Shown in pieces: positions 12,098 through 58,835 of a stretch of DNA of 58,850 nucleotides (the stretch's first letter is position 1; every line of letters starts with the position of its first letter). Both the position numbers and the translations under genes were made by a program. The notes under the pieces are model-generated. The model saw only the letters and a program-made list of their open reading frames with translations, had not been told where the DNA came from and made no database searches. Source of the DNA: Bacillota bacterium (GTDB lineage Bacteria; Bacillota; SHA-98; UBA4971); the NCBI GenBank assembly GCA_012841305.1, contig DUVA01000181.1, positions 1 through 58,850 of the forward strand, read 5' to 3'.

Positions 12098-12127
12098 ACC
12101 CTCCTAGGCAGGCTATCACAGCGGGAT

Positions 12128-13048: not shown

Positions 13049-14705
13049 TGCCTTCCTTCAAAAGAATAGAGGTTGAGTCCTGGCGGGGCTTACCGCGCCT
13101 TAGGAGGCAGCCGGGCCGCTCTCCCGTCAAATCCCCTTCGCAAAAAGCGAGTCTGCCGTTGACAATAACGTGTGAGAATCCCCTGGATAACTCATTGGGG
13201 TTATCAAATGTTGCCATATCCTCCACTTCGTCAGGGGAAAAGATTACTACGTCCCCCGCCATTCCCGGTCTTAGGATTCCTCGATCGAGGAGTCCCAAAC
13301 GCCAGGCAGACGCAGAGCTCATCTTCCTTACCGCTTCTTCAAGGGTAAGGACCTTCTCATCGCGCACCATGTGCCTTAATACCTTGCTGAAGGTTCCGTA
13401 CTGTCTTGGGTGGGACTTGCCACTTGAAGTCCATATCCCATCCGACCCAACCATGTGCAATGGTGAGGTAAACGTCGCAAGTACGTCTTCCCGATGGAAC
13501 GCTGACATGAGCCCCAGAGTCTTGCAGCTATCAGCTATGAGAAGGGTTGAGAGGATATCGAAGGGATCTTGTCCGAGTTCGTCTGACAACTGTTGGAGGC
13601 TCTTGCCCTCGTATGCCTTGTACTTGGTAGATGATACTGAAGATACTATGATGTTCTGCCAACCTACCAGAGCAACCTTACATTCCCACATCTTATCAGA
13701 GGTGCCATGAAGAGTTTCATGCCTTATCCTCTTATGCATCTCGTTATCTTGAAGCAAGACACTGAGGTTTTCAATCCCGCCCTCAAGCACCCAGGGAGGA
13801 AGAACCGAGCCGAGTGTGGTGCTTGCTACCGTGTAAGGATACATGTCACAGGTGATATCAATCCCCATCCTCCGTGCTTCTTCCATCACGTCCAGGGCTT
13901 GACTGACTTTCCCCCAGTTTGCTTCCCCTACAGCTTCCAAGTGTGACACATGTCCCGGTACCTTCGCTTCTCTTAGAATCCCCAACAGTTCCTGGATGGA
14001 CTCAAGAAGACATGTTCCGTATGTACGTATGTGGGCTGCAAGGAATCCCCCATATTCACCTGCTGTCCTTGCGAGTTCTCGAAGTTCTGCTGAGTCTGCA
14101 AAAGAGCCCGGCGCATAAATCAGGCCAATGGACAAGCCAAAAGCGCCGCCTTCCATGGCGTTTCTGAGAAAGCATTTCATCTTGGACATCTGCTCCCGGG
14201 AAGGGGGCCCCGGGTTATATCCCATGGCTGCTATTCGAATCGCCCCGTGACCTACCAGACTTGCCACATTAGTAGTAAGTCCTTTGGCATCCAGTAGAGC
14301 CAAGTAGTGGCTAATCGATGGTGCGACATCGTCTTCTGTGACATGCTTGGACAAAGAGGCCAAGTATGCGGTGAAAAGAGACTTGGTTTCCGGAACCATG
14401 GGGTACATGGAAAATCCGCAATTGCCGGCTACAACCGTGGTGACACCTTGCGAGAGCTTGGCGAGATTATCAGGATTTTCAGGGAAGCTAAGGTCGTCAT
14501 GGGAATGAATATCAATGAAACCCGGGCTCGCCACGCGTCCGTCAGCGTCAATCGTCAAATGGGCGGATTCGTCCACGTGCCTGTCCATGGCAACTATGTA
14601 TCCCCGGGATATCCCGATATCTCCCCTGAACCACGGGTTTCCCGTCCCGTCAACAATGCGTGCATTCTTGATCAATATGTCCAGCACTCTACCTAATGCC
14701 TCCAC
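13032..14705 (-). CDS. D-aminoacylase (N-acyl-D-amino-acid deacylase), amidohydrolase superfamily
   Basis: NARIVDGTGNPWFRGDIGI...PGFIDIHSHDD metal-binding motif and overall length (557 aa). It overlaps the rluD stop and the ddh start. Confidence 0.75.
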   Translation of the reverse strand: MEALGRVLDILIKNARIVDGTGNPWFRGDIGISRGYIVAMDRHVDESAHLTIDADGRVASPGFIDIHSHDDLSFPENPDNLAKLSQGVTTVVAGNCGFSMYPMVPETKSLFTAYLASLSKHVTEDDVAPSISHYLALLDAKGLTTNVASLVGHGAIRIAAMGYNPGPPSREQMSKMKCFLRNAMEGGAFGLSIGLIYAPGSFADSAELRELARTAGEYGGFLAAHIRTYGTCLLESIQELLGILREAKVPGHVSHLEAVGEANWGKVSQALDVMEEARRMGIDITCDMYPYTVASTTLGSVLPPWVLEGGIENLSVLLQDNEMHKRIRHETLHGTSDKMWECKVALVGWQNIIVSSVSSTKYKAYEGKSLQQLSDELGQDPFDILSTLLIADSCKTLGLMSAFHREDVLATFTSPLHMVGSDGIWTSSGKSHPRQYGTFSKVLRHMVRDEKVLTLEEAVRKMSSASAWRLGLLDRGILRPGMAGDVVIFSPDEVEDMATFDNPNELSRGFSHVIVNGRLAFCEGDLTGERPGCLLRRGKPRQDSTSILLKEGNGYVK

Positions 14706-15639
14706 TATCCAGTTTCATCAACACAGAACACATGTCTTCCGGTATTGGCGCCTCGATGTACATATGTTCACCGGTTGTTGGGTGGGTGAATGCCAGTGAG
14801 AAAGCATGTAGGGCTTGTCCTGTCATGCCGAAAGATTTTCCGCCTCGGGGTCCGTATACGTTATCCCCGATAATCGGATGGCCGATGTGCTTCAAGTGAA
14901 CTCGTATCTGGTGAGTTCTTCCGGTGATAGGTTGGACTCTGAGCAACGCGTATCCTCGGAACTCCCTTAGTGTCTCGTAATATGTTAGCGCAGCACGGGT
15001 TTTTCCCTCTTTAAGCACAGCCATCTTCTTTCTATGAATCGGGTGGCGTCCAACTGCTGCATCGATGTGCCCTTCTCTTTCATCGGGAACACCTGCGACT
15101 ATTGCAAGATAGATTTTTTCAACCATACGCCGCCTGAGGTCTCTTGCAAGAGTCATATGTGCTATGTCAGTCTTGGCAACTAAGATCACGCCTGACGTGT
15201 TCTTATCAAGCCTGTGGACAATTCCGGGGCGCTCCTTTCCGCCGATAGTCGACAATTTGTCGCTATGGTCAAGAAGGGCATTTACCAATGTCCCTGACCG
15301 GTTGCCACAAGCAGGATGAACTACCAGGCCACGGGGTTTGTTCACTGCGATTATGTCATCATCTTCATAGAGAATGTCCAAAGGGATATCTTCAGGCAAT
15401 ACCAAGTCTCTTTCAGGGGCGGGAACAGTGACAGACAGAATATCACCTTCCTTCACCTTCCTGCTTACTCGTGCATGCTCCCTGTTTATCAAGACAAGGT
15501 TACCTGTAATGAGCTTCTGCACGCGTGACCTGGAAAGGGCAAGCTGCCATGAAAGATAAACATCAAGGCGCTTGCCCTCATCACATTGCTCAACTTTGAT
15601 TATTCTAGTTTGCGATGTGTCAACTCCCGGCGACTCCAT
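14689..15639 (-). CDS. rluD: 23S rRNA pseudouridine synthase, RluD/RluA family
   Basis: S4 domain (RLDVYLS), catalytic HRLDKNTSGVILVAK, GRTHQIRVHL. Confidence 0.9.
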   Translation of the reverse strand: MESPGVDTSQTRIIKVEQCDEGKRLDVYLSWQLALSRSRVQKLITGNLVLINREHARVSRKVKEGDILSVTVPAPERDLVLPEDIPLDILYEDDDIIAVNKPRGLVVHPACGNRSGTLVNALLDHSDKLSTIGGKERPGIVHRLDKNTSGVILVAKTDIAHMTLARDLRRRMVEKIYLAIVAGVPDEREGHIDAAVGRHPIHRKKMAVLKEGKTRAALTYYETLREFRGYALLRVQPITGRTHQIRVHLKHIGHPIIGDNVYGPRGGKSFGMTGQALHAFSLAFTHPTTGEHMYIEAPIPEDMCSVLMKLDSGGIR

Positions 15640-15644
15640 GCCGA

Positions 15645-16409
15645 TTACCGCTGGCTTGCCGGACTTTGTTCCTCAATCGGTTCAGAAGATAGAATACGTA
15701 TGCAGGCAAATGCGCCAATTACAAGAAGTACGCTTGCTAGTTGAGTTATGGAGAATGGACCGATAAGTCTCGGCACATCCCTGAAAATCTCTACGATAAA
15801 CCTGCTAATAGAGTAGAGCCCTACGTAGAGAAACATTAGGTACCCCGGGAATTTCGTGTGATCCTTCTTAGCATATAAGGTTATAAAGATTACAAGACTC
15901 AAAAGGGCTGCGTAAATTTGAGTCGGATGTCTTAACGTGGCGTCGCCTGCACGACATGCCAGAGCCCATGGGACATTAGCAGGCAAACCAAAGCAGCAAC
16001 CATTCAGGAGACACCCGATTCTTACGATGGCATAGCCCAGCGCTATCAGAGGGGCGATAATATCAGCCATTATCCACCCGTTGAGCCCTGAGCGGCGCGT
16101 AAACGCTATGCCCACAAGAAGCGCAGCGATGAATCCTCCGTGGTAGGCCAGTCCTCCGTCGCGGAGATTAATGATTTGGATCGGGTCTCTGAAGTATGTC
16201 GGTATATCCAGCAGCACGAATAGCAGTCTTGCCCCAATTATCGCTGAGATACATACATACAGGGCCAGATCAAGGAACTTGTCAGGATCGATATCTCTTC
16301 GTCTTGCTTCGCGTATTCCCAGTATCGTACATACGACAAATGCGATAGCTAGAGAAAAGCCATATGAGAGGATAGGCACCCTCCCAAGTTGAAACAGAAT
16401 AGGCCTCAT
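15645..16409 (-). CDS. lgt: Prolipoprotein diacylglyceryl transferase
   Basis: Polytopic protein with YGFSLAIAF, GARLLFVL, GGLAYHGG, RIGCLLNGCCFG and HPTQIY motifs. Confidence 0.9.
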   Translation of the reverse strand: MRPILFQLGRVPILSYGFSLAIAFVVCTILGIREARRRDIDPDKFLDLALYVCISAIIGARLLFVLLDIPTYFRDPIQIINLRDGGLAYHGGFIAALLVGIAFTRRSGLNGWIMADIIAPLIALGYAIVRIGCLLNGCCFGLPANVPWALACRAGDATLRHPTQIYAALLSLVIFITLYAKKDHTKFPGYLMFLYVGLYSISRFIVEIFRDVPRLIGPFSITQLASVLLVIGAFACIRILSSEPIEEQSPASQR

Positions 16410-16900
16410 TTACTATTCCTCCCCCCAGGGTTTCCTATGACCAAGCTGTAAATCAAGACAGCCGCCCCTACACAGACAGCAATGTCTGCTACATTAAACA
16501 CAGGCCAGATGTGTACGTCTATGAAGTCTATTACGTGGCCCAGCCGGATTCTGTCAATCAGGTTTCCTGCTGCTCCGCCCACCACCATTCCGGCACCCAG
16601 CCGGAGTTTTTCACCAAGATGCTTATGGATGCCTTGTGCGACAACTATGATCCAAGCCGCCACGACCAGGCATGATACGATAATTGGGACTCTTGCAGTG
16701 GATAGGACGCCTAACGCAGAGCCTGGATTGTAGATTCGGGATATCTCGACAAGTCCTCCCAAGACAGAGATACCGGCACCGGTCGGGACGGTCTTCTCCA
16801 CCAGAAGTTTTGTGACCTGATCAAGGACGACAATGGCTGCAGGCAAGAAAAGTGACTGCACTATGACAGGATCTCTCCTCGCTACGTCATCTGTTACCAT
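16406..16900 (-). CDS. lspA: Lipoprotein signal peptidase II
   Basis: LDQVTK, NPGSA, GGAAGNLIDR and VFNVADI motifs. I chose the ATG at 16900 (GAGGG RBS) rather than the longer ORF to 16978. Confidence 0.85.
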   Translation of the reverse strand: MVTDDVARRDPVIVQSLFLPAAIVVLDQVTKLLVEKTVPTGAGISVLGGLVEISRIYNPGSALGVLSTARVPIIVSCLVVAAWIIVVAQGIHKHLGEKLRLGAGMVVGGAAGNLIDRIRLGHVIDFIDVHIWPVFNVADIAVCVGAAVLIYSLVIGNPGGRNSK

Positions 16901-17019
16901 GAGACGAGCCCTCAACGTGGGTATTGTACCATACATTGAAAGCGAGTTCAAGAACGCCCGGCACGCGTCGCGCTTCACGCATTCAGCGGTTCACACCCTT
17001 CAACATGCTGTTTGCACTA

Positions 17020-17694
17020 TCAGCGCGTACGCTTTATCCGGCTGCGTTGCCCTCCCGGAATCACCTTATAGTCTTTGGTAGCGATCATCTCTACATCTTC
17101 AACTGCTCCTCTCGTCTGATTCCCACCTTCTTCGAAGACTTCCCGACTGTCGAGGACGCCTACCAGATCTTGAGGCCCGCTTGCTGACCCATACCTCTCC
17201 AGATCTTGCCACACGTCTTCTCCGTCTGTGCCCGGAGTCTTCCTGTCGCGTATACCATTTCCAAATGGGATTCCAAGCACCTCTTCTTCTATGGGCCTGT
17301 CCCTTTTTGGAGGAGCAGTTGTATGAACATCACCTTGACACCGGCTACAGAGGCGTGTGTAGGGAATCAGATCCAGTCTGTCTTCTTCAATATCATTGCC
17401 GCAGTGTTCACATGTGCCGTAATTACCGCTATTTAAGAGGTCTATGGCTTCATCTACTCTCTTTAGGATGATCTTTGCGTCCTCACACAACTTTATGTCT
17501 TTTCCACGCTCAAAGAGCTCAGACGAGACGTCAGCCGGGTGGTTGTCATAGAGTGAAAGCTCACCTATGGAGTCTTTCATAGCTTGCTTTATACCCCCTT
17601 CTCCCTTTCCTTCCAGCGCCTCGATACGTTGTATGAGCCTTGCTCTTTCAGACAGTAATCGTTCCAGGTAATTCTGTATAGTCTCTTTATTCAC
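17020..17694 (-). CDS. ylyA: TraR/DksA-family zinc-finger protein (YlyA/YteA-like)
   Basis: C4 finger CEHCGNDI...CSRCQ after a coiled-coil region. Synteny ylyA-lspA-...-rluD as in Bacillus. Confidence 0.7.
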   Translation of the reverse strand: MNKETIQNYLERLLSERARLIQRIEALEGKGEGGIKQAMKDSIGELSLYDNHPADVSSELFERGKDIKLCEDAKIILKRVDEAIDLLNSGNYGTCEHCGNDIEEDRLDLIPYTRLCSRCQGDVHTTAPPKRDRPIEEEVLGIPFGNGIRDRKTPGTDGEDVWQDLERYGSASGPQDLVGVLDSREVFEEGGNQTRGAVEDVEMIATKDYKVIPGGQRSRIKRTR

Positions 17695-17707
17695 AGCCTT
17701 TAGCCTC

Positions 17708-18034
17708 CTATCTTAATCTCATGTGGCTGTTCACTGTTTTTACGATTTCCGCGATGAATTCACCGATTATGGGGATATTCAGCTGGACAATTCTGGACAG
17801 GATTATAATGAAGAGAGCTGCGAGTATTGTGGCGCCGATACCTATACCAAAGCCACGGGCAAGTCCCCCTAAGAAATTTACGAAGATTATCCTTCTGGGA
17901 TTCCTGAGGAACTCAACATACTCAGCAATGTTCATCTTATCCATAGCAAGGGATAATTCAGCTATACGGCGGATAAGAGTGTTTGCGGTTTCTCTGTCAA
18001 TATTCGCCTCTATTGGCTGATATCTCTTTGTCAT
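17708..18034 (-). CDS. Small membrane protein, DUF5665-like
   Basis: GGGAGG RBS before the ATG at 18034. NPRRIIFVNFLGGLARGFGIGIGATI hydrophobic core. Confidence 0.55.
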   Translation of the reverse strand: MTKRYQPIEANIDRETANTLIRRIAELSLAMDKMNIAEYVEFLRNPRRIIFVNFLGGLARGFGIGIGATILAALFIIILSRIVQLNIPIIGEFIAEIVKTVNSHMRLR

Positions 18035-18133
18035 GATTACATGTCCTCCCATTAGTTTGTCCAGGATACTATCTGTTTAACTGTTTGATAATGGTACGCA
18101 TCAGGACTCTTGAAAATGCTCATCAAAGCACTG

Positions 18134-18186
18134 CAAATTAAAAAGCGAGGCTTGACTGTGTACTTTAAGTACCCATAGCCTCGCTT
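18134..18186 (-). terminator. Rho-independent terminator
   Basis: On the minus strand, AGCGAGGCT-24 nt loop-AGCCTCGCT is followed by TTTTTAATTT, downstream of the gene ending at 18223. Confidence 0.75.
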
Positions 18187-18222
18187 TCTTATCCGTACCT
18201 GCTAAGATGCTTGTTCTTGCTT

Positions 18223-18474
18223 CTATGTGGTTATTGCTGATTTCACCTTAACGCCTTTTACATTGCCTAGTTTACCTGTAAGACTACCAATTTCATCTGT
18301 GGTCCCATTGATGATCAGAGCTATGACCCCTGCTTCTTTCTCTATGTGTGGAACACCTAGACGTCCGACGATAATGTCTGCGTGAAGACTTAGAATTTCG
18401 TTGACTTTCTTTGCAGCATTTAACCTATCCTCTACAACTATACCTACAACCGCAATTCTTGATTCTGAATCCAT
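18223..18474 (-). CDS. TM1266-family small ACT/NikR-C-like regulator (annotated in databases as iron-only hydrogenase system regulator)
   Basis: RIAVVGIVVEDR...VNEILSLHADIIVGRLGVP...GVIALIINGTTDEIGSLTGKLGNVKGVKVKS matches my recollection of the family. Confidence 0.6.
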   Translation of the reverse strand: MDSESRIAVVGIVVEDRLNAAKKVNEILSLHADIIVGRLGVPHIEKEAGVIALIINGTTDEIGSLTGKLGNVKGVKVKSAITT

Positions 18475-18494
18475 GTATCTCAAAGCCTCCTTAT

Positions 18495-18953
18495 CTAGCG
18501 TTTATCAAAAAAGGAAGGTAAAGGCCTGTCTTTCTTCTCCTCTCCCTCAGGCAAATCCAAGCCTATCTCAAAATTGCTTGGGGTGAATAAGAACACACCT
18601 TCACTTACCTTTTGCATACTGCCATTAAGTGCATACGTGGCGCCTCCGGCAAAATCCAATACGCGCCTGGCCAGTTCACGGTCTATGTCTGATATCCGCA
18701 CAATGACAGGACGCCTCTTCTTCAAACGCTCAAGGATGCCGGGGATATCGTCAAAGGATCCTGGTTCAGTGACTACCAACCTTGCTCTGGGTGATTGAGG
18801 AAGGGCAACCAGTCCCTTTCCTCGCTGACCTGCTCCGGCCCACGGACCTCCGTCACCTCGAAGTATGGAGTCTTCCGTAAACTCACATGTGTCATCAGCT
18901 ACTTCGCCGAACCCCATGAAGTCAAGGAGCCTGTCAATCAAACCTCTTCTCAC
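18495..18953 (-). CDS. sepF: Cell division protein SepF
   Basis: N-terminal LIDRLLDFMGF and C-terminal domain PVIVRISDIDRELARRVLDFAGGATYALNGSMQKVSEGVFLFTP. It lies downstream of ylmE as in Bacillus. Confidence 0.85.
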   Translation of the reverse strand: MRRGLIDRLLDFMGFGEVADDTCEFTEDSILRGDGGPWAGAGQRGKGLVALPQSPRARLVVTEPGSFDDIPGILERLKKRRPVIVRISDIDRELARRVLDFAGGATYALNGSMQKVSEGVFLFTPSNFEIGLDLPEGEEKKDRPLPSFFDKR

Positions 18954-18955
18954 GT

Positions 18956-19675
18956 TTACAGCACCGCCTTCCTGAAACGCGGACCGAATATCCCAGTGCC
19001 AATGCGGATCATCGTTGCCCCTTCCTCAACCGCGGTCTCAAAATCATGAGTCATGCCCATGGAAAGGTGAACCTTGCCGGGGCAGAATAGGCCGGCATCG
19101 CTGATTTTTTCACATATCTCTCTTGTCGTTCGAAAATACGGCCTTGCCTGCGAAGGGTCTTCTACAACAGGGGCAATGGACATTACCCCCCTAAGCCTGA
19201 CCCTACTGAGTGCCGAGATATCACCGGCTAAAGCTAAGGCATTCTCAGGTTCTATCCCGATTCTTGCGGGCTTACCCGTAACGTTGATTTCCAGGAGACA
19301 CTCTGCTGTTACATCCAGTCTCTCGGCGACTTTTTCCATTTCCTGCGCCAGCTTCCACGAGTCAAGTGAGTGAATTAACTCGAATATCGGAAGAGCGTGG
19401 CGCACCTTGTTGCGCTGCAAGTGGCCGACAAGATGCCAGCTTACCTTATTTCCGTCTATTTCATTCCCAAGCCTCTCGAATTTCGCCCTGGCTTCTTGAA
19501 CTCTGTTTTCACCCAGTATCGAGACGCCTTCGCCAACTGCTTCCATGATGTCCATGTCGTCCACGTTCTTCGTCACTGCAACAATGGTAATATCCTCGGG
19601 CTCACGTCCGGCTCTTTCCGCTGCTTCATAGACTCGGTTACGAACCAGTCTGAGCCTCTTAGCAATTTCAGTCAA
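18956..19675 (-). CDS. ylmE: YggS/YlmE-family PLP homeostasis protein
   Basis: VAVTKNV..., GENRVQEA, WHLVGHLQRNK, MGMTHDFETAVEEGATMIRIGTGIFG. Confidence 0.9.
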   Translation of the reverse strand: MTEIAKRLRLVRNRVYEAAERAGREPEDITIVAVTKNVDDMDIMEAVGEGVSILGENRVQEARAKFERLGNEIDGNKVSWHLVGHLQRNKVRHALPIFELIHSLDSWKLAQEMEKVAERLDVTAECLLEINVTGKPARIGIEPENALALAGDISALSRVRLRGVMSIAPVVEDPSQARPYFRTTREICEKISDAGLFCPGKVHLSMGMTHDFETAVEEGATMIRIGTGIFGPRFRKAVL

Positions 19676-19694
19676 AGATACGCTTCCCTCCTAT

Positions 19695-20672
19695 TTACCT
19701 CCATACGGTTATGCCTGCCTCATGTACCACATATGGATTCACTACAACCCGTTGCCCTTCTCGCAATCCTTCACACATTACTTGACTTTCGTCACCTGCA
19801 ATGACTGTTACGGGCTTAGAGTCTACTCCCAGGTTGGCTGGTATGTAGACCAGATACCCATCTTTCCCTTTAACAAGGGCTTGCTTAGGGATGATGATTC
19901 CTCTTTGAGTTCCGGTAATGATCTTAGCGTGAACGTGGCGGAGATAATACAGCTCATGAGGATAGTCAGTAAGTTCTAATAACAGAGCGCTCGGTTTCGG
20001 ATCATCCCGAGTCGAATCTACCCGGGAGACAATCTTAGCAGAGCAAAGGCGACCGGGTACCGAATCAAACCGTAAGGTGCACTTGCGCCCTTCAGTCAAA
20101 ACCCGACTGACTGAAGGCGTAATGCCGGGCTCAGGAAATACCAGGACATAGACACGGTAGTTATCAATTACCCGAAAAAGAGTTCGGCCTGTTTCAACTT
20201 GCATACCTGACTTCACACTCACCGGATTGGAGACAAGCTCGGACACCTTCTTAGCGTCAAAGTCCACCCACGAAGAGGGAGTGAGGATTCTTTCCAGTCC
20301 GTCTACGGTGAAACTGACAACGCCTGGTTTTTCAGGCACCAAACGGACTCCTGTATTGTCCTCTGTCCTTCTCTGGGTTTCGCCTGGCACGACTTGAGCT
20401 ATTGTCGTATCCGTCCGTGCTCTGCTCTTTTCCGGTGCAACCAGCCTCAGTGTGCCACCTGTAGGACTCAGGTAGACCATCTCGTCTCTTATAATAACGC
20501 CTTCTGAGCCCACTCCCTGTTCTATCTCGCCTCGTTTTGCAGGCACACAAACAAGCCTGCTTTCTGACTCTGATATCTGGGAGTTTTGGTTAAGCGACCA
20601 AGACACGAGTGCAATAACTGCAAGTGAGAAGACTATGAGCCAGAGTCTGGATTTAACCCCGCGATACTCCAT
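19695..20672 (-). CDS. N-terminally anchored HlyD/membrane-fusion-like barrel-sandwich protein
   Basis: Single N-terminal TM segment, then beta-rich domains with a C-terminus typical of periplasmic-adaptor-like proteins (IIPKQALVKGKDGYLVYI...GLREGQRVVVNP). Confidence 0.45.
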   Translation of the reverse strand: MEYRGVKSRLWLIVFSLAVIALVSWSLNQNSQISESESRLVCVPAKRGEIEQGVGSEGVIIRDEMVYLSPTGGTLRLVAPEKSRARTDTTIAQVVPGETQRRTEDNTGVRLVPEKPGVVSFTVDGLERILTPSSWVDFDAKKVSELVSNPVSVKSGMQVETGRTLFRVIDNYRVYVLVFPEPGITPSVSRVLTEGRKCTLRFDSVPGRLCSAKIVSRVDSTRDDPKPSALLLELTDYPHELYYLRHVHAKIITGTQRGIIIPKQALVKGKDGYLVYIPANLGVDSKPVTVIAGDESQVMCEGLREGQRVVVNPYVVHEAGITVWR

Positions 20673-21301: not shown

Positions 21302-21614
21302 CTAAGTATGAGTTCATTAGTTTTCGCTCGTTTTCCGATTGTCTCGGGTGGCCGGTGATTGGAACGAGGGGTGTCAAAATTCGGCCACTTGCCTACGGGC
21401 CGGATTTTGTCAAGGCGACCCGCTTGGGGAGCCGTCCCCGAGTGCAACACCGGCCACCCTGCATGGCACGTACACTTTCTGGAACCGGCGATTACTCATG
21501 CTGGAGACCGTTGATTTCTCCCAATAGCTGCCAGGTATTACCCTGTTTGTCAATGTACAGTCCATATTTACATTTAACTGGGAGAAATCAACGGTCTCAT
21601 GGAGATCTACTTAG
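21302..21614 (+). repeat. Copy B of the repeat family: core plus M2 module (about 21346-21459) plus H hairpin element (21504-21598)
   Basis: Termini are CTAAGTATGAG...ATGGAGATCTACTTAG. The M2 closing stem is GGGTGGCCGGTG/CACCGGCCACCC. The H arms are GAGACCGTTGATTTCTCCC/GGGAGAAATCAACGGTCTC. Confidence 0.85.
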
Positions 21615-43586: not shown

Positions 43587-43692
43587 CTAAGTATGAGTTC
43601 ATTAGCTTTCGCTCGTTTTCCAAGGTCTTGGGTGGCCCTCAACGGTACGTACGCTTTCTGAAATCGGCGATTACTTATGGTGATCTGCTTAG
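43587..43692 (+). repeat. Copy C: minimal 106-bp unit of the palindromic repeat family
   Basis: CTAAGTATGAGTTCATTAGCTTTCGCTCGTTTTCCAAGGTCTTGGGTGGCCCTCAACGGTACGTACGCTTTCTGAAATCGGCGATTACTTATGGTGATCTGCTTAG, lying between pbp and murE. Confidence 0.85.
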
Positions 43693-43794
43693 AATAGCGC
43701 GGTTACTACCATTATTTCGCCAATGATTGTCCAGTATGACAAATACCGGGAAATTTATCTGTCTTGATTCTCCGGTGCAGCCCATGCCCACATA

Positions 43795-48113: not shown

Positions 48114-49973
48114 TCAGCCGACTACTTCGTCGTCTACCCGGAACAGCCAGATTTCGCTATGACCGTTCATGTGTGATATGACAGCTATTTGACCCCTGAT
48201 CGACCAGGTGAATTCAGCTATCCCAGGTGCGCTTATTATCTGTTTTAATCTACCGCCACCCGAAGGGCATACTGCAAGACCTGCGGGGTTTGTCATTAGC
48301 CATTGGCCGCAAGGCGAGATTTCCAGCAAATCTCCGGCTTTCTCAGCCAGAATTCGGTGCAAGCCGTTTGATCTGTCAAAGCAATAGACAGTCTTGTTCA
48401 TTATGTAGTAGATGGACATTCCATCAGGTGATGCCTGTATTGCGCTGATGGCGCCCGGTAGTTGGAACAGTTCATTTGTGGTGCTGCCCTCTGACAATAC
48501 CAGGACACTGGAGGTTTTGTTGCCCGCGGATTGCGTTTCCAGTAATGCAAAGAATTCATAAGATCTGGAAGGACATCTGAGAGCAAGCAGAGTTCCACTC
48601 TTGACGGAGTAGAGTGTCTCATGTGAACCTGACCTTGGATCAAAGACGCCTATTTTGTATCCTCCGCTACCTCGAGCGACGTACCTAAGCACAGCGTTGT
48701 CAGGGCGCCATTCAATCTCAGAAACGGTCCATCCAGAGCCTGCGCTTTCAGCCTTCTCTTTCTTGTCGTCGGCTCTGAATAAGATTTTCCCTTTACTGAG
48801 GTATGCGAAGCTGCTCGCGTTTTTCCCCGGTTCCGGACGTTCATCCGATGGAACGTCTGTAACCTCACTGATATCGCCTGTCATTGCATCAAGCACCTTA
48901 AGCCCTTTTCCTGCCGAGACAAAGAATACTTCGCTTCCGTCAGCTGCCCATGCCGGATTCTTCGAGCCTTTGGCGCCTGCATTGAATCTTGCTATTTCTG
49001 TAAGTGGAACACCGTTATCCACAGGGGCCAACGGAGGCCTTACAGGACAAGCGATAGCCGGTAGGTAGCATGTGGGTTGGTCTCCACATGTTCTGCTGCA
49101 GGTTGCCGCGGAACCGCATGTAGGCACGCAGGTGTAATAACCTTTACAGGTGGCGCTACATGTTGACATGCCCTGGCTGCATGTGGCTGCGCACGTAGGC
49201 GTAGGACTGCATGTTGTTCCGGTTGTAGCGTGTTCAATGTCGCACCCTGATTCACACGTGGGTTGACTCCCGCATGTCTCAGCGCAAGTTGCGCCACACG
49301 TCGCGCCACAAGTTGCACTACACGTTTCCGCGCAAGTGGGGCCGGTTCCACATGTCGCGCTACATGTCGCTGTACAAGTAGGGTTAGTTCCGCACGTCGC
49401 TGCACAAGTAGGATTGGTTCCACAGGTGGCTGCGCATGTGGGGTTAGTTCCGCAAGTCGCACCGCATGTGACTACGCACGTAGGCTTTATCCCGCAGGTT
49501 ACAGCGCATGTAGACCCGCACGTCAGCCCGCAAGTGGGTTTAGTTCCGCAAGTCGCTGAGCATGTGTCTGCGCAAGTAACTTTAGTTCCGCATGTTGCAG
49601 CGCATGTAACGAGACATGTAGATGAGCATGTAGACCCGCACGTCAGCCCGCAAGTAGGTTTAGTGCCGCATGTCACGAGACAGGTGGGCGCAGTAGTAGG
49701 AGCAGGGCATATCCCGGATGTAGCCATAGGTTCTACCTGGTCGTTTTTCTCCCCTGACGAGTCGCTCTCCGGAGTCTCATATTCACTTGATTCGATACGC
49801 CAATACGGATTCTGAAGACGCTTATCCGCGAGTTCCGCCGAGTAAGCGAAAAGAGGTGAATCCATGACTTCCTCGGTAGCCTTCACCTTTGCGGCGGAAG
49901 TCCAAAACCCTACTACAAGCATGCATGAAAGCACTAGTACTACAGTCAAGAACCTTACTCTTTGTCTATTCAT
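48114..49973 (-). CDS. Secreted/anchored protein: signal-anchor, acidic linker, ~220-aa Thr-Cys ladder (about 45 Cys), Pro-rich hinge, TolB-like beta-propeller
   Basis: The ATG at 49973 lies 8 nt after AAGGAGGG, inside the end of the upstream gene (TGAAATG junction). N-terminus is MNRQRVRFLTVVLVLSCMLVVGF. The repeats are TCGTKPTCGLTCGSTC... The C-terminal part has propeller-like blades (ADGSEVFFVS, SPDGMSIYYI, SPCGQWLM). Confidence 0.8.
   Translation of the reverse strand: MNRQRVRFLTVVLVLSCMLVVGFWTSAAKVKATEEVMDSPLFAYSAELADKRLQNPYWRIESSEYETPESDSSGEKNDQVEPMATSGICPAPTTAPTCLVTCGTKPTCGLTCGSTCSSTCLVTCAATCGTKVTCADTCSATCGTKPTCGLTCGSTCAVTCGIKPTCVVTCGATCGTNPTCAATCGTNPTCAATCGTNPTCTATCSATCGTGPTCAETCSATCGATCGATCAETCGSQPTCESGCDIEHATTGTTCSPTPTCAATCSQGMSTCSATCKGYYTCVPTCGSAATCSRTCGDQPTCYLPAIACPVRPPLAPVDNGVPLTEIARFNAGAKGSKNPAWAADGSEVFFVSAGKGLKVLDAMTGDISEVTDVPSDERPEPGKNASSFAYLSKGKILFRADDKKEKAESAGSGWTVSEIEWRPDNAVLRYVARGSGGYKIGVFDPRSGSHETLYSVKSGTLLALRCPSRSYEFFALLETQSAGNKTSSVLVLSEGSTTNELFQLPGAISAIQASPDGMSIYYIMNKTVYCFDRSNGLHRILAEKAGDLLEISPCGQWLMTNPAGLAVCPSGGGRLKQIISAPGIAEFTWSIRGQIAVISHMNGHSEIWLFRVDDEVVG
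49047..49709 (-). repeat. In-frame tandem repeats encoding the Thr-Cys ladder (12-, 30- and 120-nt periodicities)
   Basis: For example, CGTNPTCAAT occurs three times (about 49380-49470), and a near-identical ~47-nt block occurs at about 49507-49553 and 49627-49675. Confidence 0.8.
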
Positions 49974-49974
49974 T

Positions 49975-52545
49975 TCATTTTCCCTCCTTTCCTTTTTCAA
50001 TCAGCCGAAACTCTAAGTCGTAGATGGACTTAAGGGTCGAGTCAGGTATCGTGGAAGTCGTTCCCATGAGTTCATCAGAGAAAAGTCTTGACGCTGCAAA
50101 TACAAAGACCTTACCTCGTCCGATTTGTTTTTCTGCAGCCACCGTCCTTTCCAGGCTATCACCCACTTGCAGATTACCGCCGGCTACTTGGTAAGTGAGG
50201 ACATGTCGCTGGATTGGTTCTCCGTCAAGGCTGATGACAGATGCGATTTTGGGTTCTTTGACGGAAAGTCCGAAATTCCGCAAGAATTCATTGGCCAATC
50301 TGTCCGAGGATCCGTTTCCATGCATAACTAACAGGTATCCACCGGATTCCACGTATTGCCTTATCATATGATATTCACGATTTGAGAAACGTTTAGCAAT
50401 ATTCATAAGCACGACGACGTCGCATTCCAGCGCCTCACGAAGAGATGCAACCCTGGGGCGGCCTTCTACCCGCTGAATCCAGGTATAGAATGTATGGTAG
50501 GCTTTGGATGAATCAAGGAATATTGTCTCCTCCGGCAGCAACATCAAGGTATGATCTCGTTCAAAAGCTACTTCCAGAGTATCGCTGCGAATCTTGGGGG
50601 GATGCCGATAAGCGGCAGAGGTGAGGCTCTGACAGGACCATATGGCCAGATAGATACCTATGAGCGCTGCAAAGGCCATAGAAGGAGCAAGTGGTGCGAA
50701 AGCACGGCCTCTTCTGCGTATAAGCAGGAAGAGCCCGCATAGCAGGACAGCCGCAGCACCTAGAAGAACTGCCGGTAACCAGGTCAGGTATGCATTGCGA
50801 TTGAGCCAACTGATCATGCCTATGAGGAGTTCCCATTTGCCCGGGATAAACATGAAGAAGTTGGACCACACTGTGCTGTCAGTGAATGCTACTACCCTTC
50901 CCTTTCCTGATGAAGCTGCAGCAGCCTGAATCAAGAGTCCATATTCCTTATCCAGATCCGGCCTGTCAGTGGCGAAGAAGTTCTCATGACTATAGTCAAG
51001 ATATAGACTCTTCACTCCATAACCTGTGATTACGCCGGAGGCAAAGGGTGATATCCCCATTGAGCAGGAAGTCGCAAATAGAAATCTCGGAAGAAGTATT
51101 GCCGCAGGGTGACGGAATATGCTACGGTCTTCGTATATTGAGAGGCCTCCGGTTCTGAGATCGTATGTGCCGTCATACTTAAAGCGTAATCCAAATCTCT
51201 CTGCAACAGGATTTAAGTACGTACTGGTTCCAAAGACATTTGTATGATCACCTACTAGGAAAAGCCCTCCGCCTTTCTTGACAAATTCGCAAATAGCGTC
51301 GATTTCTTCTTCGTTATATGCCTCAGTGGGTGTTTTCAACATCAAGATGTCACAAGTCCCGAGGAGTTCACGGGAGATCGGTGAGTCAAGGTTTTTTGCG
51401 ACGTCATAGTAATCTCGAAGATATGCTGCAAGGGAATAGTAATTGTATCCGGAATCTTCTCCGTACCATAGAGTATCGTATGGCCTGGTAGTCTTCTCCC
51501 AGATAGTGTGCTTTTCATCTATGAGGATTCTGCCCCGTTTCTTGATTCCCGGATCTCGAAATCCAAAGGCAAACACCAAAAGAAATGTGATTACACAGGC
51601 AAGAGCTTGAGGAGCCCACTGTTGGGATTGATGTTTGCCTATTTTGGCAGCTCCTTCATGCCGTTTCTTCTTTGGCGAATCTTGTGTGGTTCTTATTGGA
51701 TCTGCGGTATCTTGCGTATTATAGGTATGTGCAAATCCTTTCCAGGCCGGCATTAGGGCGAGAGGCAAGAAGCTTCCTAATACCCATGCAGGCAACCAGA
51801 ATATGTCATAGTCCCGGTATGAGACGGTAACAAGCAGAAGAAACACGTATCGTGCCAGGAAGAATGCAGCCAGAATGCTGAGGACTTCCCCGGTTTCCCG
51901 CATTATATTGATTAGGTTTCTGTTATGTTTCTTTCTTAGGATGACCTTCATGGTGATCCATCCGGCAAATACCATAATCATGAGGAGCAGGTTCAGTTTC
52001 TCCGACGTGGTGGCTAAAGTGAACTCATATCCCGGTGTGCGAATGAAAACACCATTTGCGCAAGGAGCCGCAGTTACTGAAAATATTCGAAGAAGCCAAC
52101 AGATGACCGGGTCTAAGACTTCTATGTGGTGATGACGGGACTCAAAGGCGACGAAAGACGGAAGCACGAGGGCTTGCACAGTCATGACAATTCCTGCAGT
52201 GGCAAAGCCTGCGGCAATCCTACGTAGACGATTTGCAAGAAGAGTCAAGACCAGGCCGCATGCAATGAGACAAAGGCCCAGATTTTCAGGGAACGGAATG
52301 TGCGTCGAGATAAGCACCAGCGGGACAGCGCATAGGACGTACTGCTTGAGTATGGTCCCCGAGGTATCCGCGCCTCTCGAAGAAGGGGATGAGACGCAAA
52401 ACAATACCAGCCCCATGAGCAAGGTTAACGTTCCAAGGCCACGTGAGGGGCTGTAATATGGTAGAAGCAATACCCAACTGAGTGAAAGGCTGACTATGCC
52501 TACCCATAAACCTATGGCGCTCCGTTTCCCTATCTCAATATCCAT
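49975..52545 (-). CDS. 856-aa polytopic membrane protein with two GldG/DUF4350-like extracytoplasmic alpha/beta domains (paralogue 2)
   Basis: About 10 TM segments, then domain (KKGGGLFLVGDHTNVFG...GKGRVVAFTDSTVWSN), 2 TM, then a second domain (ESGGYLLVMHGNG...GRGKVFVFAASRLFSD). Confidence 0.75.
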   Translation of the reverse strand: MDIEIGKRSAIGLWVGIVSLSLSWVLLLPYYSPSRGLGTLTLLMGLVLFCVSSPSSRGADTSGTILKQYVLCAVPLVLISTHIPFPENLGLCLIACGLVLTLLANRLRRIAAGFATAGIVMTVQALVLPSFVAFESRHHHIEVLDPVICWLLRIFSVTAAPCANGVFIRTPGYEFTLATTSEKLNLLLMIMVFAGWITMKVILRKKHNRNLINIMRETGEVLSILAAFFLARYVFLLLVTVSYRDYDIFWLPAWVLGSFLPLALMPAWKGFAHTYNTQDTADPIRTTQDSPKKKRHEGAAKIGKHQSQQWAPQALACVITFLLVFAFGFRDPGIKKRGRILIDEKHTIWEKTTRPYDTLWYGEDSGYNYYSLAAYLRDYYDVAKNLDSPISRELLGTCDILMLKTPTEAYNEEEIDAICEFVKKGGGLFLVGDHTNVFGTSTYLNPVAERFGLRFKYDGTYDLRTGGLSIYEDRSIFRHPAAILLPRFLFATSCSMGISPFASGVITGYGVKSLYLDYSHENFFATDRPDLDKEYGLLIQAAAASSGKGRVVAFTDSTVWSNFFMFIPGKWELLIGMISWLNRNAYLTWLPAVLLGAAAVLLCGLFLLIRRRGRAFAPLAPSMAFAALIGIYLAIWSCQSLTSAAYRHPPKIRSDTLEVAFERDHTLMLLPEETIFLDSSKAYHTFYTWIQRVEGRPRVASLREALECDVVVLMNIAKRFSNREYHMIRQYVESGGYLLVMHGNGSSDRLANEFLRNFGLSVKEPKIASVISLDGEPIQRHVLTYQVAGGNLQVGDSLERTVAAEKQIGRGKVFVFAASRLFSDELMGTTSTIPDSTLKSIYDLEFRLIEKGKEGK

Positions 52546-55839: not shown

Positions 55840-56100
55840 TCACCTTGGCTGTACAATCAACTTGATCGCGGTCCTTTCTTCCCCGTCAATCTGCACATCA
55901 GTAAATGCAGGAATCATCACCAGATCTATGCCACTTGGCGCCACAAAGCCCCTGGCAATAGCAACAGCCTTAACAGCCTGATTCAGGGCGGCCGCGCCGA
56001 CTGCCTGAACTTCAGCACCTCCTCGTTCTCTCACAACTCCTGCCAACGCACCTGCCACGGAATTGGGATTTGACTTAGCAGACACTTTGAGGACTTCCAT
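55840..56100 (-). CDS. spoVS: Stage V sporulation protein S
   Basis: MEVLKVSAKSNPNSVAGALAGV...AVGAAALNQAVKAVAIARGF, 86 aa. Confidence 0.95.
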   Translation of the reverse strand: MEVLKVSAKSNPNSVAGALAGVVRERGGAEVQAVGAAALNQAVKAVAIARGFVAPSGIDLVMIPAFTDVQIDGEERTAIKLIVQPR

Positions 56101-56460
56101 ACTAAATTCCTCCTTGTATGGCCTGGAATGCCGGTTATGGATGAACTATTATATACCAAGGTATTACATTCCTGCTATATTTTCATATACAGTTAAAAAA
56201 ACGTGGAAGGGAAATACTTAAGTATGAGTTCATGAGACCGTTGGACTTCGCCAGTAACCACCAGTTTCGCCGAAGACGTCGACCAGTCTCTGCGATTCGA
56301 GAGGGCTGTGTTAACATAATGTGGGAAAGAGCAACGGTCTCGTTCATTAGTTTTTGCTCGTTTTCTCAGGACTTGGGTTGGCGGTGATTGCAACGAGGGG
56401 TGTCAAAATTCGGCCACTAGCCTACGGGCCGGATTTTGTCAAGGCAACCCGCTTGGGGAG

Positions 56461-57263
56461 CAGGAATTCCGCAAGCGCCGTTTTTCCTGGATATATATTC
56501 GAACCAGCACTCTGGTTATGGCCGTCAGATTAAATGGGAGTCTTACCCATCTATGAGAGAGCATATAGGGCCCCCTTTCCCCTACCCGGGCGGAAGCCTT
56601 ATTGACAATCCCAAAGCTCTTTTAGGGGGGCTCAGTCGAATGGCTTGCCCGGAGAGCCATTCCGGTTTTGCTTCATGATTCTCCGCGTCTTTTGCGGGGC
56701 GATAGTTCGCGTGGTCGAAAAACAACCACCGTGAGGCTCTTTGGTGGTTGATTCTCAACCATCTTTTTCAGCGCATTCGCTTGGATGGTTGAGAATCGAC
56801 CATCTTAGGGCTTGTTAATGGTTGATTATCGACCACGATCATGCCTCCAGGGGGCAGAATATAGAACACCTCATCACAGAGAATCCCTTCACATGAAGAT
56901 TGTGGATACAAAATCGACCACATTTTTAGAAAAGGTGAACGAAAATCTACCAGCTTTTCCAATACCGTGGTAGAAAACCTTCCACCTGAGCCTCAAAGAG
57001 CTATCAAAATCCCTCTTCAGCCCAAAAATGTGGTCGAAAATCAACCACTATTGCCGTTTGGGGTGGTCGAAAACCGACCATTTTCCGGCTTTTTGCTGCA
57101 GAAATCCCAAAAGGTGGTTGAAAGTGAACCGGCGTTTTGAAAAGAGTGGTTGAAAATCGACCATGTTCATGTTAACCGTAAGCGCCAAACAGCGCCCACT
57201 GCTCCCTTGCAGTGTTCATGCTGGTTCACCACATGATACACTCTATGGCTTGCGGAATTCCTG
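56461..57263. mobile_element. 803-bp non-coding TIR-bounded insertion (MITE-like) with target-site duplication
   Basis: Perfect 16-bp inverted termini CAGGAATTCCGCAAGC/GCTTGCGGAATTCCTG. Flanking direct repeat is GCTTGGGG(AG)/GCTTGGGG(G). The empty site is seen in copy B (CGCTTGGGGAGCCGTCCCC). No ORF with an RBS lies inside. Confidence 0.8.
56711..57164. repeat. Array of 11 imperfect 19-20-bp palindromes, GTGGTYGA-N3-TCRACCAC
   Basis: Copies at 56711, 56744, 56785, 56818, 56902, 56935, 56967, 57030, 57063, 57114 and 57146. Six neighbour spacings are 32-33 bp. Confidence 0.85.
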
Positions 57264-57385
57264 GCTTGGGGGCCGTCCCCGAGTGCAACACCGGCAACCC
57301 TCAACGGTACGTATACTTTCTGGAACTGGCGATTGCTTACGGTGTTCTGCTTGGATGCACTTTTGAGGCGGCAAATAGACTGGTG

Positions 57386-58171
57386 TCAATCGATGGCTGC
57401 TTCTCTAATCCTCTGAATCGCTTTAGTCTTGCCGGTACCGTAATCAACAGTGACCACCGCACCACACAGCTCAGTCGGCCCTGACGCAATCTGAAACTGC
57501 CTTGGCAGTCCTGTTAGGAAACGGTCTATTATGATATCAGTTCTTACTCCCAGAACTGAGTTTACCGGGCCTGTCATACCCAAATCAGATATATAACCTG
57601 TACCTTCCGGGAGAATTCTCTCATCTGCAGTCTGGACGTGGGTATGTGTCCCGACAATGCACGCAACCCGGCCATCGAGGAACCAACCCATAGCGATTTT
57701 CTCAGAGGTGGCTTCAGCATGGAAGTCCACGACAATTAAGTCACACTTCTCTGATAGCTCAGTCACAATAGCGTCAGCGACTCGAAAAGGACAGTCCAGG
57801 GGGGACATGAACACACGGCCGATCAAATTCACGACACCAAGTCTGATTCCGTTTGAAAGGTTTATGACAGTAGCTCCCTTGCCTGGAGCACCAGGGGGGT
57901 AGTTGGCAGGACGCAGAATGCGCGTGTTATCTTCAAGGAACCTGTAGAGTTCTTTCTTTTGCCAGACATGGTTCCCGGTTGTCAGAACCGAAATTCCAAG
58001 GCCAAACAACTCTTCAGCAGTATCCTGAGTAAGCCCAAGGCCTCCTGCTGCATTCTCACCATTGGCTATTATGGCGTCAGGCTTATAAGTATTGACAAGT
58101 TCAGGTAAAGCGGTCTTCACTGCACGCCGCCCGGGTCTGCCTACGATATCACCTATAAAAAGAAGATTCAA
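57386..58171 (-). CDS. ymdB: YmdB-family metallophosphoesterase (2',3'-cyclic-nucleotide phosphodiesterase, TIGR00282-like)
   Basis: LNLLFIGDIVGRPGR, GENAAGG, GNHVW, DFHAEATSEK, GTHTHVQTADE. TTG start at 58171 lies 7 nt after AGGAGG. Confidence 0.9.
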   Translation of the reverse strand: MNLLFIGDIVGRPGRRAVKTALPELVNTYKPDAIIANGENAAGGLGLTQDTAEELFGLGISVLTTGNHVWQKKELYRFLEDNTRILRPANYPPGAPGKGATVINLSNGIRLGVVNLIGRVFMSPLDCPFRVADAIVTELSEKCDLIVVDFHAEATSEKIAMGWFLDGRVACIVGTHTHVQTADERILPEGTGYISDLGMTGPVNSVLGVRTDIIIDRFLTGLPRQFQIASGPTELCGAVVTVDYGTGKTKAIQRIREAAID

Positions 58172-58190
58172 CCGGTGTCCTCCTAGAGCC

Positions 58191-58835
58191 TTAAGATTTC
58201 GTGCGCTCAGTCTGCTTATTGAAAACAAGAACGCGTCCTTCTTCGCGAAATCCTATTAGCTTTCTTTGCTGCACAGACTCTCTCAAATCGTCCAGCATAG
58301 TCTCGATCATTTCATCTTGATATACCAATTCTTCTTCGAATTCGCCTTCTTCGCTGTTCCCCTCACTTATCAGTTCAGAACCCAGCGCGTATCTGGCAAG
58401 TTCAATTATGAGAGATATTTCCTCTTGGGTCAGGGTGGCAACATCCCGAGATATCTCCACAATAGATACACTGTCAAACTCCAGTCGCTCTGCTTTGACC
58501 CTTGGAGCTCCCCTATGCACCAGAGAGGCGTACACTTCCACACTCTCAAAGAGTTTGTGGCAGAAGGCATCCCACAATCGGTCGGAAATAGAAGATGATG
58601 TCATGAACGTAAACTTAAGAATCTTGCCTTCCGGAACGAAGTTTACCGTCGCTATTTCCGGATAGCGAACCAGTATGGAAATGAGAAGGCTTACACTGTT
58701 TGCCGTGCTGTCAGAAATAGCTTCCAATTGGGTATCAGCGTCATCCACTGTGACCACCCCTCCTTGCGTCCTGTTCTCGCAGCTCAACTGAGAGTTCGCC
58801 ATAGGGGCAAAAACTCCTGCTAAGACAGTTCTCAT
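58191..58835 (-). CDS. Hypothetical acidic protein (no family recognised); start uncertain and close to the window edge
   Basis: Long ORF ending 19 nt upstream of the ymdB start. No motif recognised. It occupies the position where rny lies in Bacillus but is not RNase Y-like. Confidence 0.45.
   Translation of the reverse strand: MRTVLAGVFAPMANSQLSCENRTQGGVVTVDDADTQLEAISDSTANSVSLLISILVRYPEIATVNFVPEGKILKFTFMTSSSISDRLWDAFCHKLFESVEVYASLVHRGAPRVKAERLEFDSVSIVEISRDVATLTQEEISLIIELARYALGSELISEGNSEEGEFEEELVYQDEMIETMLDDLRESVQQRKLIGFREEGRVLVFNKQTERTKS

Follow-up and report, generated by a model that had tools for sequence, protein, structure and literature searches.

The 58,850-bp stretch of DNA analysed here, referred to below as the window, is contig DUVA01000181.1 of a Bacillota bacterium (assembly GCA_012841305.1), and nearly all of its long open reading frames (ORFs) lie on the minus strand. 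In a 1285-bp gap between a ymdB-like gene and spoVS it contains an array of short palindromes, carried by an 803-bp mobile element (Table 1), and this array is the subject of the present analysis. A GNAT acetyltransferase gene follows spoVS. A first-pass annotation, made from the sequence alone, had found no candidate gene for a binding protein nearby, and this holds: the neighbours encode YmdB, SpoVS and the GNAT acetyltransferase, and no DNA-binding protein gene adjoins the array. Contigs from anaerobic-digester metagenomes that encode an identical SpoVS share the gene order ftsH-cinA-recA-recX-rny-x-ymdB-gap-spoVS-GNAT, and the recA-rny-ymdB-spoVS synteny shows that the locus is chromosomal. 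Nine such contigs are 99.4-99.8% identical to the window over the gap, and among these strains the array is unchanged save for a few single-nucleotide polymorphisms.

We searched the whole window with the pattern GTGGTYGAAAATCRACCAC, allowing up to three mismatches, and obtained seven strong matches (sites 1-4, 8, 9 and 11 in Table 1) and no others in 58,850 bp, where shuffled sequences predict 0.01 by chance. A looser core, TGGTYGA-N3-TCRACCA, recovered site 10. Over the ~450 bp from 56711 to 57164 the consensus GTGGTYGA-N3-TCRACCAC is present as seven strong copies, three weak copies and one half copy. The first-pass annotation had counted eleven palindromic copies; the strong and weak ones stand, but at 56902 only a right half-site is left. 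Weak or partial as they are, sites 5-7 occupy positions that are conserved in homologous arrays at other loci, that of site 5 being kept in L040, L065, L129 and L130. In the left part of the array the palindromes alternate in orientation with linkers of 14 and 22 nt, sites 1-2 forming a 54-nt inverted repeat with sites 3-4, and sites 5-11 all have the same orientation.

The spacings between sites are 32-33, 41, 51, 63 and 84 bp, all near-integer multiples of the helical turn, so a layout on one face of the DNA holds for the entire array. All 11 sites are in phase at a period of 10.6 bp: the resultant length is 0.91, and 0 of 1000 random spacings came up to it. Five related arrays are likewise phased (resultant length 0.82-0.94 at 10.55-10.6 bp), and across the six arrays at most 1 in 1000 random spacings matched the observed phasing. 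The first-pass annotation was right about its four best copies and about six neighbour spacings of 32-33 bp, and its proposal of a single helix face proved stronger than claimed. It was also right that the motif differs from parS. Tandem Repeats Finder did not report the array because the spacing is irregular. The repeats are not those of a clustered regularly interspaced short palindromic repeat (CRISPR) locus, being 19 bp long and degenerate, with spacers of 13-65 bp that are conserved between copies. The array module has a GC content of 45% (window, 49%) and no pronounced AT-rich block.

Table 1. Features of the ymdB-spoVS gap and its flanking genes, in window coordinates.
Feature	Position	Strand	Sequence	Remarks
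spoVS	55840-56100	-		Downstream flank; Pfam SpoVS, E = 6e-39
Second nested insertion, 108 bp	56234-56341		Inverted ends GAGACCGTTG.../...CAACGGTCTC	Direct GTTCAT flanks
Host repeat R, left part	56342-56460			90% identical to window 21312-21432
Target-site duplication, left copy	56451-56460		GCTTGGGGAG	Single in the uninterrupted repeat at ~21422-21431
MITE-like non-autonomous transposable element, 803 bp	56461-57263			Array carrier; perfect terminal inverted repeats and target duplication
Left terminal inverted repeat	56461-56476	+	CAGGAATTCCGCAAGC	16/16 complementary to 57248-57263
Array module (palindromes and spacers), non-coding	56665-57177	+		Left-truncated relative to L040 and L130
Palindrome site 1	56711-56729		GTGGTCGAAAAACAACCAC	1 mismatch to consensus
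Palindrome site 2	56744-56762		GTGGTTGATTCTCAACCAT	Opposite in orientation to site 1, which it follows by 33 bp
Palindrome site 3	56785-56803		ATGGTTGAGAATCGACCAT	Pattern match
Palindrome site 4	56818-56836		ATGGTTGATTATCGACCAC	Pattern match
Degenerate site 5	56902-56921		TCGACCAC	Right half-site alone intact; 20-nt variant; overlaps TGTGGATAC at 56901-56909
Weak site 6	56935-56953		GTGAACGAAAATCTACCAG	4 mismatches; homologous position in other arrays
Weak site 7	56967-56985		GTGGTAGAAAACCTTCCAC	4 mismatches; conserved in L065 and L130
Palindrome site 8	57030-57048		GTGGTCGAAAATCAACCAC	0 mismatches, perfect consensus
Palindrome site 9	57063-57081		GTGGTCGAAAACCGACCAT	Pattern match
Weak site 10	57114-57132		GTGGTTGAAAGTGAACCGG	Looser-core match
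Palindrome site 11	57146-57164		GTGGTTGAAAATCGACCAT	Right end of the conserved module
Right terminal inverted repeat	57248-57263	-	GCTTGCGGAATTCCTG	
Target-site duplication, right copy	57264-57272		GCTTGGGGG	One base lost
Host repeat R, right part	57273-57345			88% identical to window 21422-21496
ymdB-like metallophosphoesterase gene	57386-58228	-		Upstream flank; Pfam YmdB, E = 1.8e-109

The 803-bp carrier is a non-autonomous transposable element that makes 10-bp duplications and resembles a miniature inverted-repeat transposable element (MITE). The sequences on either side of it (56342-56461 and 57264-57337) match one continuous stretch elsewhere in the window, 21312-21496, with 88-90% identity. 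This stretch belongs to an intergenic repeat, R, whose copy between ymdB and spoVS is broken exactly at GCTTGGGGAG by the insert, and the intact copy of R at 21312-21500 proves that the 803-bp element was inserted. A related element at L130 402-1462 has the same terminal inverted repeats (TIRs) and contains the array; another, at L129 776-1199, has TIRs with two mismatches, no array and a perfect 10-bp duplication, GGACAGGAAA. These two copies at other loci argue against a unit confined to one locus. The TIRs, the target-site duplication with an empty target elsewhere, the small size and the several related copies are those of a MITE, and they bear out the view of the first-pass annotation that the array is carried by a mobile element. 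The 803-bp element has no conserved ORF or transposase gene, and no autonomous partner was found among the loci examined. No tRNA or tmRNA attachment site was found. We also considered sister strain L003, whose flanks are 95-98% identical and whose gap of 210 bp lacks window positions ~56234-57350, as an empty site; it was rejected as a clean one, since ~60 nt of R are retained and the difference may be a deletion between short direct repeats.

The repeat R is ~190 bp long, has a terminator-like hairpin (AAAATTCGGCC...GGCCGGATTTT) and lies between co-directional minus-strand genes. Besides the full copy at 21312-21500 there are partial copies at 43589-43693 and 1861-1950 and another at L129 5857-6012, and a search of the full copy against Rfam at E <= 1 gave no match. 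The copy between ymdB and spoVS took two separate insertions. The second is 108 bp long, and the R copy at ~21300 reads GAGTTCATTAG uninterrupted where this element sits; no further copy of it was present in the window or the fetched loci. At L130, directly left of the MITE TIR (372-401), there is a 14-bp tandem duplication (TTCACCTGTGGACA, twice) with no counterpart on the right, and the upstream minus-strand ORF (L130 1-260) looks by eye like an ArsR-type helix-turn-helix (HTH) regulator.

The array is also a conserved module in its own right. Window 56666-57178 can be aligned in full, with its spacers, to four other loci at 80-86% identity over ~470-490 bp: L040 1746-2212 (~80%), L065 661-242 (~81%), L129 6740-6273 (~82%) and L130 780-1266 (~86%). 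In L065, L070 and L069 the homology ends directly after site 11. The window module is shortened by ~70 nt on the left, and it has two of the 74-bp, two-palindrome units where L040, L065 and L130 have three. At L129 the array lies downstream of comEA and outside any MITE. Module and MITE each occur both together with the other and apart from it; arrays outside the MITE (L040, L129) and a MITE copy that lacks the array (L129) indicate that the array is a separable passenger.

Four of the related loci, L040, L057, L065 and L070, are contigs of a single metagenome-assembled genome (MAG), 'Firmicutes bacterium UBA4981' (DGZL01; unclassified Bacillota), in which arrays are present on at least four contigs. 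They adjoin genes for an FMN-binding protein, a D-Ala-D-Ala carboxypeptidase, a MATE transporter and a serine dehydratase. A metagenome scan with the right-end pattern of the module returned three loci, which makes for weak copy-number estimates. The arrays of UBA4981 and of the metagenome loci adjoin housekeeping genes alone, with no partner gene among them. The array size is 11-17 copies, the figure of 17, from L040, being uncertain. L040 has a ~330-bp internal duplication split by Ns (1288-1870), which is either a real tandem expansion or a scaffolding artefact. A divergent UBA4981 array (L057 1-450) retains the left half-site GTGGTCGAAAAT alone, repeated directly at 32-bp intervals (resultant length 0.94 at 10.55 bp), a hint that some arrays may need no more than half-sites. 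The best-supported account of the module is that of a lineage-specific dispersed repeat of uncultured Bacillota from anaerobic digesters.

We asked whether the palindromes are conserved as DNA sites or as hairpins, using 75 palindromes from eight arrays. At arm pair 6-14, 32 were Watson-Crick pairs compared with 26 expected from independent columns, and C-A, C-T, A-A and A-G combinations were common; pair 1-19 varied independently. About half of the copies carry a mismatch within the 8-bp arm, and several conserved sites are hardly self-complementary. Positions 2-5 and 7-8 and their mirror positions are 85-99% conserved. The lack of arm covariation together with the conserved half-sites points to two TGGTnGA half-sites for a dimeric protein and not to a selected stem, and selection for a hairpin was ruled out by the arm-pair counts. 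From this pattern we infer protein binding, as did the first-pass annotation, whose preference for a protein platform over RNA hairpins is upheld by these counts, by the strict phasing and by the absence of an Rfam match.

Where else the palindrome occurs was determined by scanning 185,579 species genomes with the degenerate 19-mer RTGGTYGAAAATCRACCAY, which gave at least 114 loci. The listed matches fall into four classes. Among the matches listed, the first class consists of the UBA4981 arrays and the start of contig L069, from another Bacillota MAG; the second is one unrelated hairpin, conserved in mitis-group streptococci between rplF and rplR; and the third comprises scattered single matches, as chance predicts. 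The fourth includes more than 30 loci from Planctomycetota, Acidobacteriota, Pseudomonadota, Actinomycetota, Deinococcota, Chlamydiota and others, with 1-3 copies exactly 22 bp apart. At 20 or more of them (a lower bound), 0-45 nt separate the copies from the start of a downstream gene encoding AAA_14 and DUF4143 domains, and the adjacent AAA_14-DUF4143 protein matches PADLOC PDC-S01 with E = 1e-163. In Acidobacteriota, four loci have these tandem sites ahead of a Ser/Thr kinase gene (L030 45-85, L055 11-73, L062 6325-6387 and L095 6177-6217). Among the matches listed, repeated copies at the DNA level occur in the arrays and in the DUF4143 (and kinase) promoters only. The contigs L055 and L113, from the same MAG, overlap through three sites and represent one divergent kinase-sites-ATPase locus at which the assembly broke at the repeats. 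The streptococcal 19-mer, GTGGTTGATTTTCAACCAC, is identical between rplF and rplR at L019 5688-5706 and ~30 other Streptococcus loci; this coincidence means that exact matches alone are no evidence of relatedness.

To avoid ascertainment by the motif, we chose ATPase homologues by protein similarity alone and inspected four independent loci of ~7 kb each. In 4/4 the palindrome occupied positions -39 to -21, followed by a degenerate repeat of it that runs from -17 to +2 and overlaps the ATG; the rest of these loci held no further site, save for one three-mismatch match in L134. The first operator copy provides TTGAAA, the second often TAATAT 17 bp on, and the ATG follows ~7 nt later. As judged from the sequence, this would be a promoter overlaid by the operator, and its mRNA would be leaderless. 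The site also varies together with the gene. For a more distant homologue on Thermus thermophilus plasmid pHC11 (TthHC11_RS10950) we found GTGGCGGAATTTCAACCGC and GCGGTTGATTTTCAACCGA, 22 bp apart, with the variant palindrome GCGGTTGATTTTCAACCGC, and a likewise more distant Pseudomonas mendocina plasmid homologue has a co-varying variant, GTGGTGTAATTTCCACCAC. Homologues of 30-47% identity (Agrobacterium, Subdoligranulum, Ruminococcus albus) had no palindrome. The simplest reading of a site that accompanies one gene across phyla, and varies along with it, is that it is the operator of that gene's own product. Arrays and operators share the consensus GTGGTYGAWWWTCRACCAC, a comparison that is partly circular in that both sets were picked with one pattern. 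Operator-bearing loci of the clade include L024, L054, L078, L113, L132, L134, L135 and L139. At L033 (2461-3850) a second pair of sites lies 59-99 nt past the stop codon, and the gene is bracketed by sites.

The clade protein has a weak match to an IclR-type HTH at residues 215-253, below the Pfam cut-off. Its AlphaFold model (predicted local distance difference test score, pLDDT, 86) resembles RuvB, Orc1/Cdc6 on DNA and STAND ATPases in the AAA+/winged-helix part, with weak TM-scores of 0.2-0.4, and Card1/Cdn1-type nucleases in the C-terminal part, again with weak TM-scores. The predicted fold is that of an AAA+ domain, a winged helix and a nuclease-like, PD-(D/E)XK-like domain. A PDB sequence search with the ATPase gave no match. 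According to one report (PMC12988326), the PDC-S01 family ranks fourth in frequency among the candidate defence systems of prokaryotes. In the literature on DUF4143, COG1373 and PDC-S01 we found no functional or cis-element data, and the DUF4143 clade's operator seems not to have been described before.

The account best supported by these observations, which we hold to be about as likely right as wrong, is that of a mobile platform with many sites on one face of the DNA, serving a winged-helix ATPase of the PDC-S01 type whose gene lies elsewhere. Each 19-bp palindrome, with its half-site TGGTnGA, would bind a dimeric helix-turn-helix protein, and the whole-turn (10.6-bp) spacing would place at least 10 dimers on one face of the DNA, favouring cooperative assembly, bending or wrapping. 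Here the module is carried by the 803-bp element, which inserted, with a 10-bp target duplication, into the intergenic repeat between ymdB and spoVS. The most likely ligand would be an AAA_14-DUF4143 (PADLOC PDC-S01) ATPase-nuclease whose gene lies at another place in the genome, from a clade that has the same palindrome, in 1-3 copies at 22-bp intervals, as its own promoter-operator. For this protein the array would be a docking, nucleation or titration platform of high avidity, spread by transposition and without an essential role in the host. The identity of the ligand, and with it a mobile sponge or nucleation site for an AAA+/winged-helix/PD-(D/E)XK protein, is a tentative proposal, rather less likely than not, drawn from conserved linkage and co-variation.

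Several observations weigh against this account. A hidden Markov model search found no DUF4143 gene in the window or in the fetched loci of the array lineage (~100 kb in total). The homologues found on Bacillota plasmids (Subdoligranulum, Ruminococcus albus) share no more than 30-33% identity and have no palindrome; like an Agrobacterium homologue, also without it, they are of no help in linking the clade to Bacillota. The array spacing is 32-84 bp, as opposed to 22 bp in the operators, and at position 6 the arrays prefer C and the operators T. A 19-bp palindrome can recur by chance, as the identical streptococcal hairpin between rplF and rplR demonstrates. The paralogous copies used for the covariation counts are not independent, which weakens that argument but does not reverse it, and neither TIRs nor a target duplication of the module's own were found.

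The missing DUF4143 gene, the differences in spacing and at position 6, and the chance 19-mer in the streptococcal ribosomal operon also favour the main rival, in which the phased platform serves a different protein, such as a nucleoid-associated protein, a transcription factor of the host or a factor belonging to the element that spreads the module, and the match to the PDC-S01 operator is convergent. Operators of the HutC/GntR type also have TGGT...ACCA arms. Yet operators and arrays both fit the degenerate 19-mer of the genome scan, and they are its sole classes with repeated copies among the matches listed. A different ligand seems to us possible, if on the doubtful side. A structural repeat related to the repetitive extragenic palindromic (REP) sequences and bacterial interspersed mosaic elements (BIMEs) of enterobacteria or to the BOX elements of pneumococci is improbable. 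Such a repeat would form DNA or RNA hairpins, as transcript stabilisers, terminators or substrates of gyrase or RAYT, and would be spread by a REP-associated transposase. The array is extragenic, dispersed, multi-copy and clustered like these elements; the alternating orientation and two linkers (14 and 22 nt) of its left part and its variable number of 74-bp units recall BIME-2, and several palindromes followed by T runs score as terminator-like. Against this stand the lack of compensatory covariation, the mismatched arms of about half of the copies, the conserved sites that are not self-complementary and the strict 10.6-bp phasing, which is no property of hairpin repeats. The units are 19 bp long, the copy number is apparently far lower, a GTAG-type head is absent, and the fetched loci showed no RAYT gene.

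Least probable of all, and remote in our estimate, is a structured non-coding RNA or a small protein gene, for which the candidate is a 57-residue ORF at 56967-57140. One gene caller called this frame (in L004), and it is open in 3/5 copies, but it is broken in L040 and L129, no ORF is conserved, and its VVENQP repeats are the palindrome in translation; we rejected it as a gene. Nothing in the window reached the Rfam gathering thresholds, E <= 1 over 56000-57500 gave only chance-level microRNA matches (E ~0.2), and the array contains neither covariation nor a sigma-70-like promoter. The first-pass annotation had favoured an iteron- or centromere-like platform, and an iteron origin or partition centromere of a plasmid or phage, captured in the chromosome, would explain many repeated sites at multiples of the helical turn and a right half of direct repeats next to an inverted left half, as in iterons with their operator. 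F sopC, R1 parC and iteron oriV are likewise helically phased arrays of short binding sites. The DnaA-box-like 9-mer TGTGGATAC noted in that annotation is present, but as a DnaA box it is not conserved in 2 of the 4 homologous copies compared, which read TGTGGGTAG (L130) and AGTGGCTAC (L129). GC skew is monotonic over the window, with no inflection at the array and no replication origin or terminus. None of the copies contains or adjoins a rep or par gene, several copies occur per chromosome in housekeeping contexts, and a copy may be present or absent between close strains without other changes. The search for plasmid and phage relatives that had been suggested yielded none: blastn of 56380-57360 was unmatched in PLSDB (72,556 plasmids) and INPHARED (50,697 phages), and IMG/VR contained no array, four pattern scans of it giving only four isolated single sites and the paired-site and module-end patterns zero matches. 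An origin or centromere is thus very unlikely, and this part of the first-pass annotation was not sustained.

By analogy, the array probably works like plasmid centromeres and iterons in one respect, as a cooperative multi-protein platform. It differs from them in being chromosomal and multi-copy, in lacking a linked rep or par gene and in having no relatives among plasmids or phages. It has the 19-bp palindrome of the DUF4143 promoter-operator and, like it, copies at whole-turn spacing. The operator consists of 1-3 copies, 22 bp apart, which overlap the -35 and -10 elements and the start codon beside the gene, whereas the array has 11-17 copies at 32-84 bp, has no adjacent gene and is mobile. 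The 803-bp carrier shares with MITEs perfect 16-bp TIRs, a 10-bp target duplication, the lack of an ORF and relatives elsewhere, and differs in its cargo, a phased array of ~11 sites that also exists outside the MITE. Some MITEs carry protein-binding sites, for example Correia elements with IHF sites. Among AAA+ proteins, winged-helix initiators of the Orc1/Cdc6 type act on origin repeats, and DnaA is titrated by a locus of the datA type. The candidate ligand shares the AAA+ and winged-helix architecture, and a cluster of sites could titrate or nucleate such a protein; it differs from Orc1/Cdc6 in the additional PD-(D/E)XK-like domain, in the weak fold matches (TM-scores of 0.2-0.4) and in that no change in GC skew accompanies the array.

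MITEs and palindromic intergenic repeats are already known, and the new element is the transposon-borne, strictly phased array of operator palindromes. To our knowledge, no bacterial case of a mobile, strictly phased array of 11-17 operator palindromes has been described. If the proposed account is correct, transposable elements can spread whole high-avidity binding platforms round the chromosome, beyond single sites, and GTGGTYGA-N3-TCRACCAC would be the first defined recognition sequence for the PDC-S01 family. That family would then consist of autoregulated, sequence-specific DNA binders with a small regulon that includes the Ser/Thr kinase genes of Acidobacteriota. A side result may be the weightier one, namely the conserved palindromic promoter-operator on a common, uncharacterised AAA_14-DUF4143 clade in many phyla, whose 19-mer makes recognition testable in cultured hosts such as Thermus thermophilus.

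Two further observations concern the surrounding DNA. In L005 (JGI 3300053716 contig Ga0534105_00121), a strain near-identical to the others apart from this region, an island at 11166-20261 replaces two DUF4350 membrane-protein genes after the GNAT gene and encodes an OLD-family ATPase/TOPRIM protein, a type III restriction Res + Mod pair, a small HTH protein and a D5-type primase-helicase. In the window, a 628-residue ORF at 48114-50000 has a long Cys/Thr/Gly-rich repeat region (TCGTKPTCGLTCGSTC...), encoded by 12-, 24-, 30- and 96-bp tandem repeats at 49282-49635; it matched no Pfam family, and its length varies from 579 to 667 residues across L001-L006.

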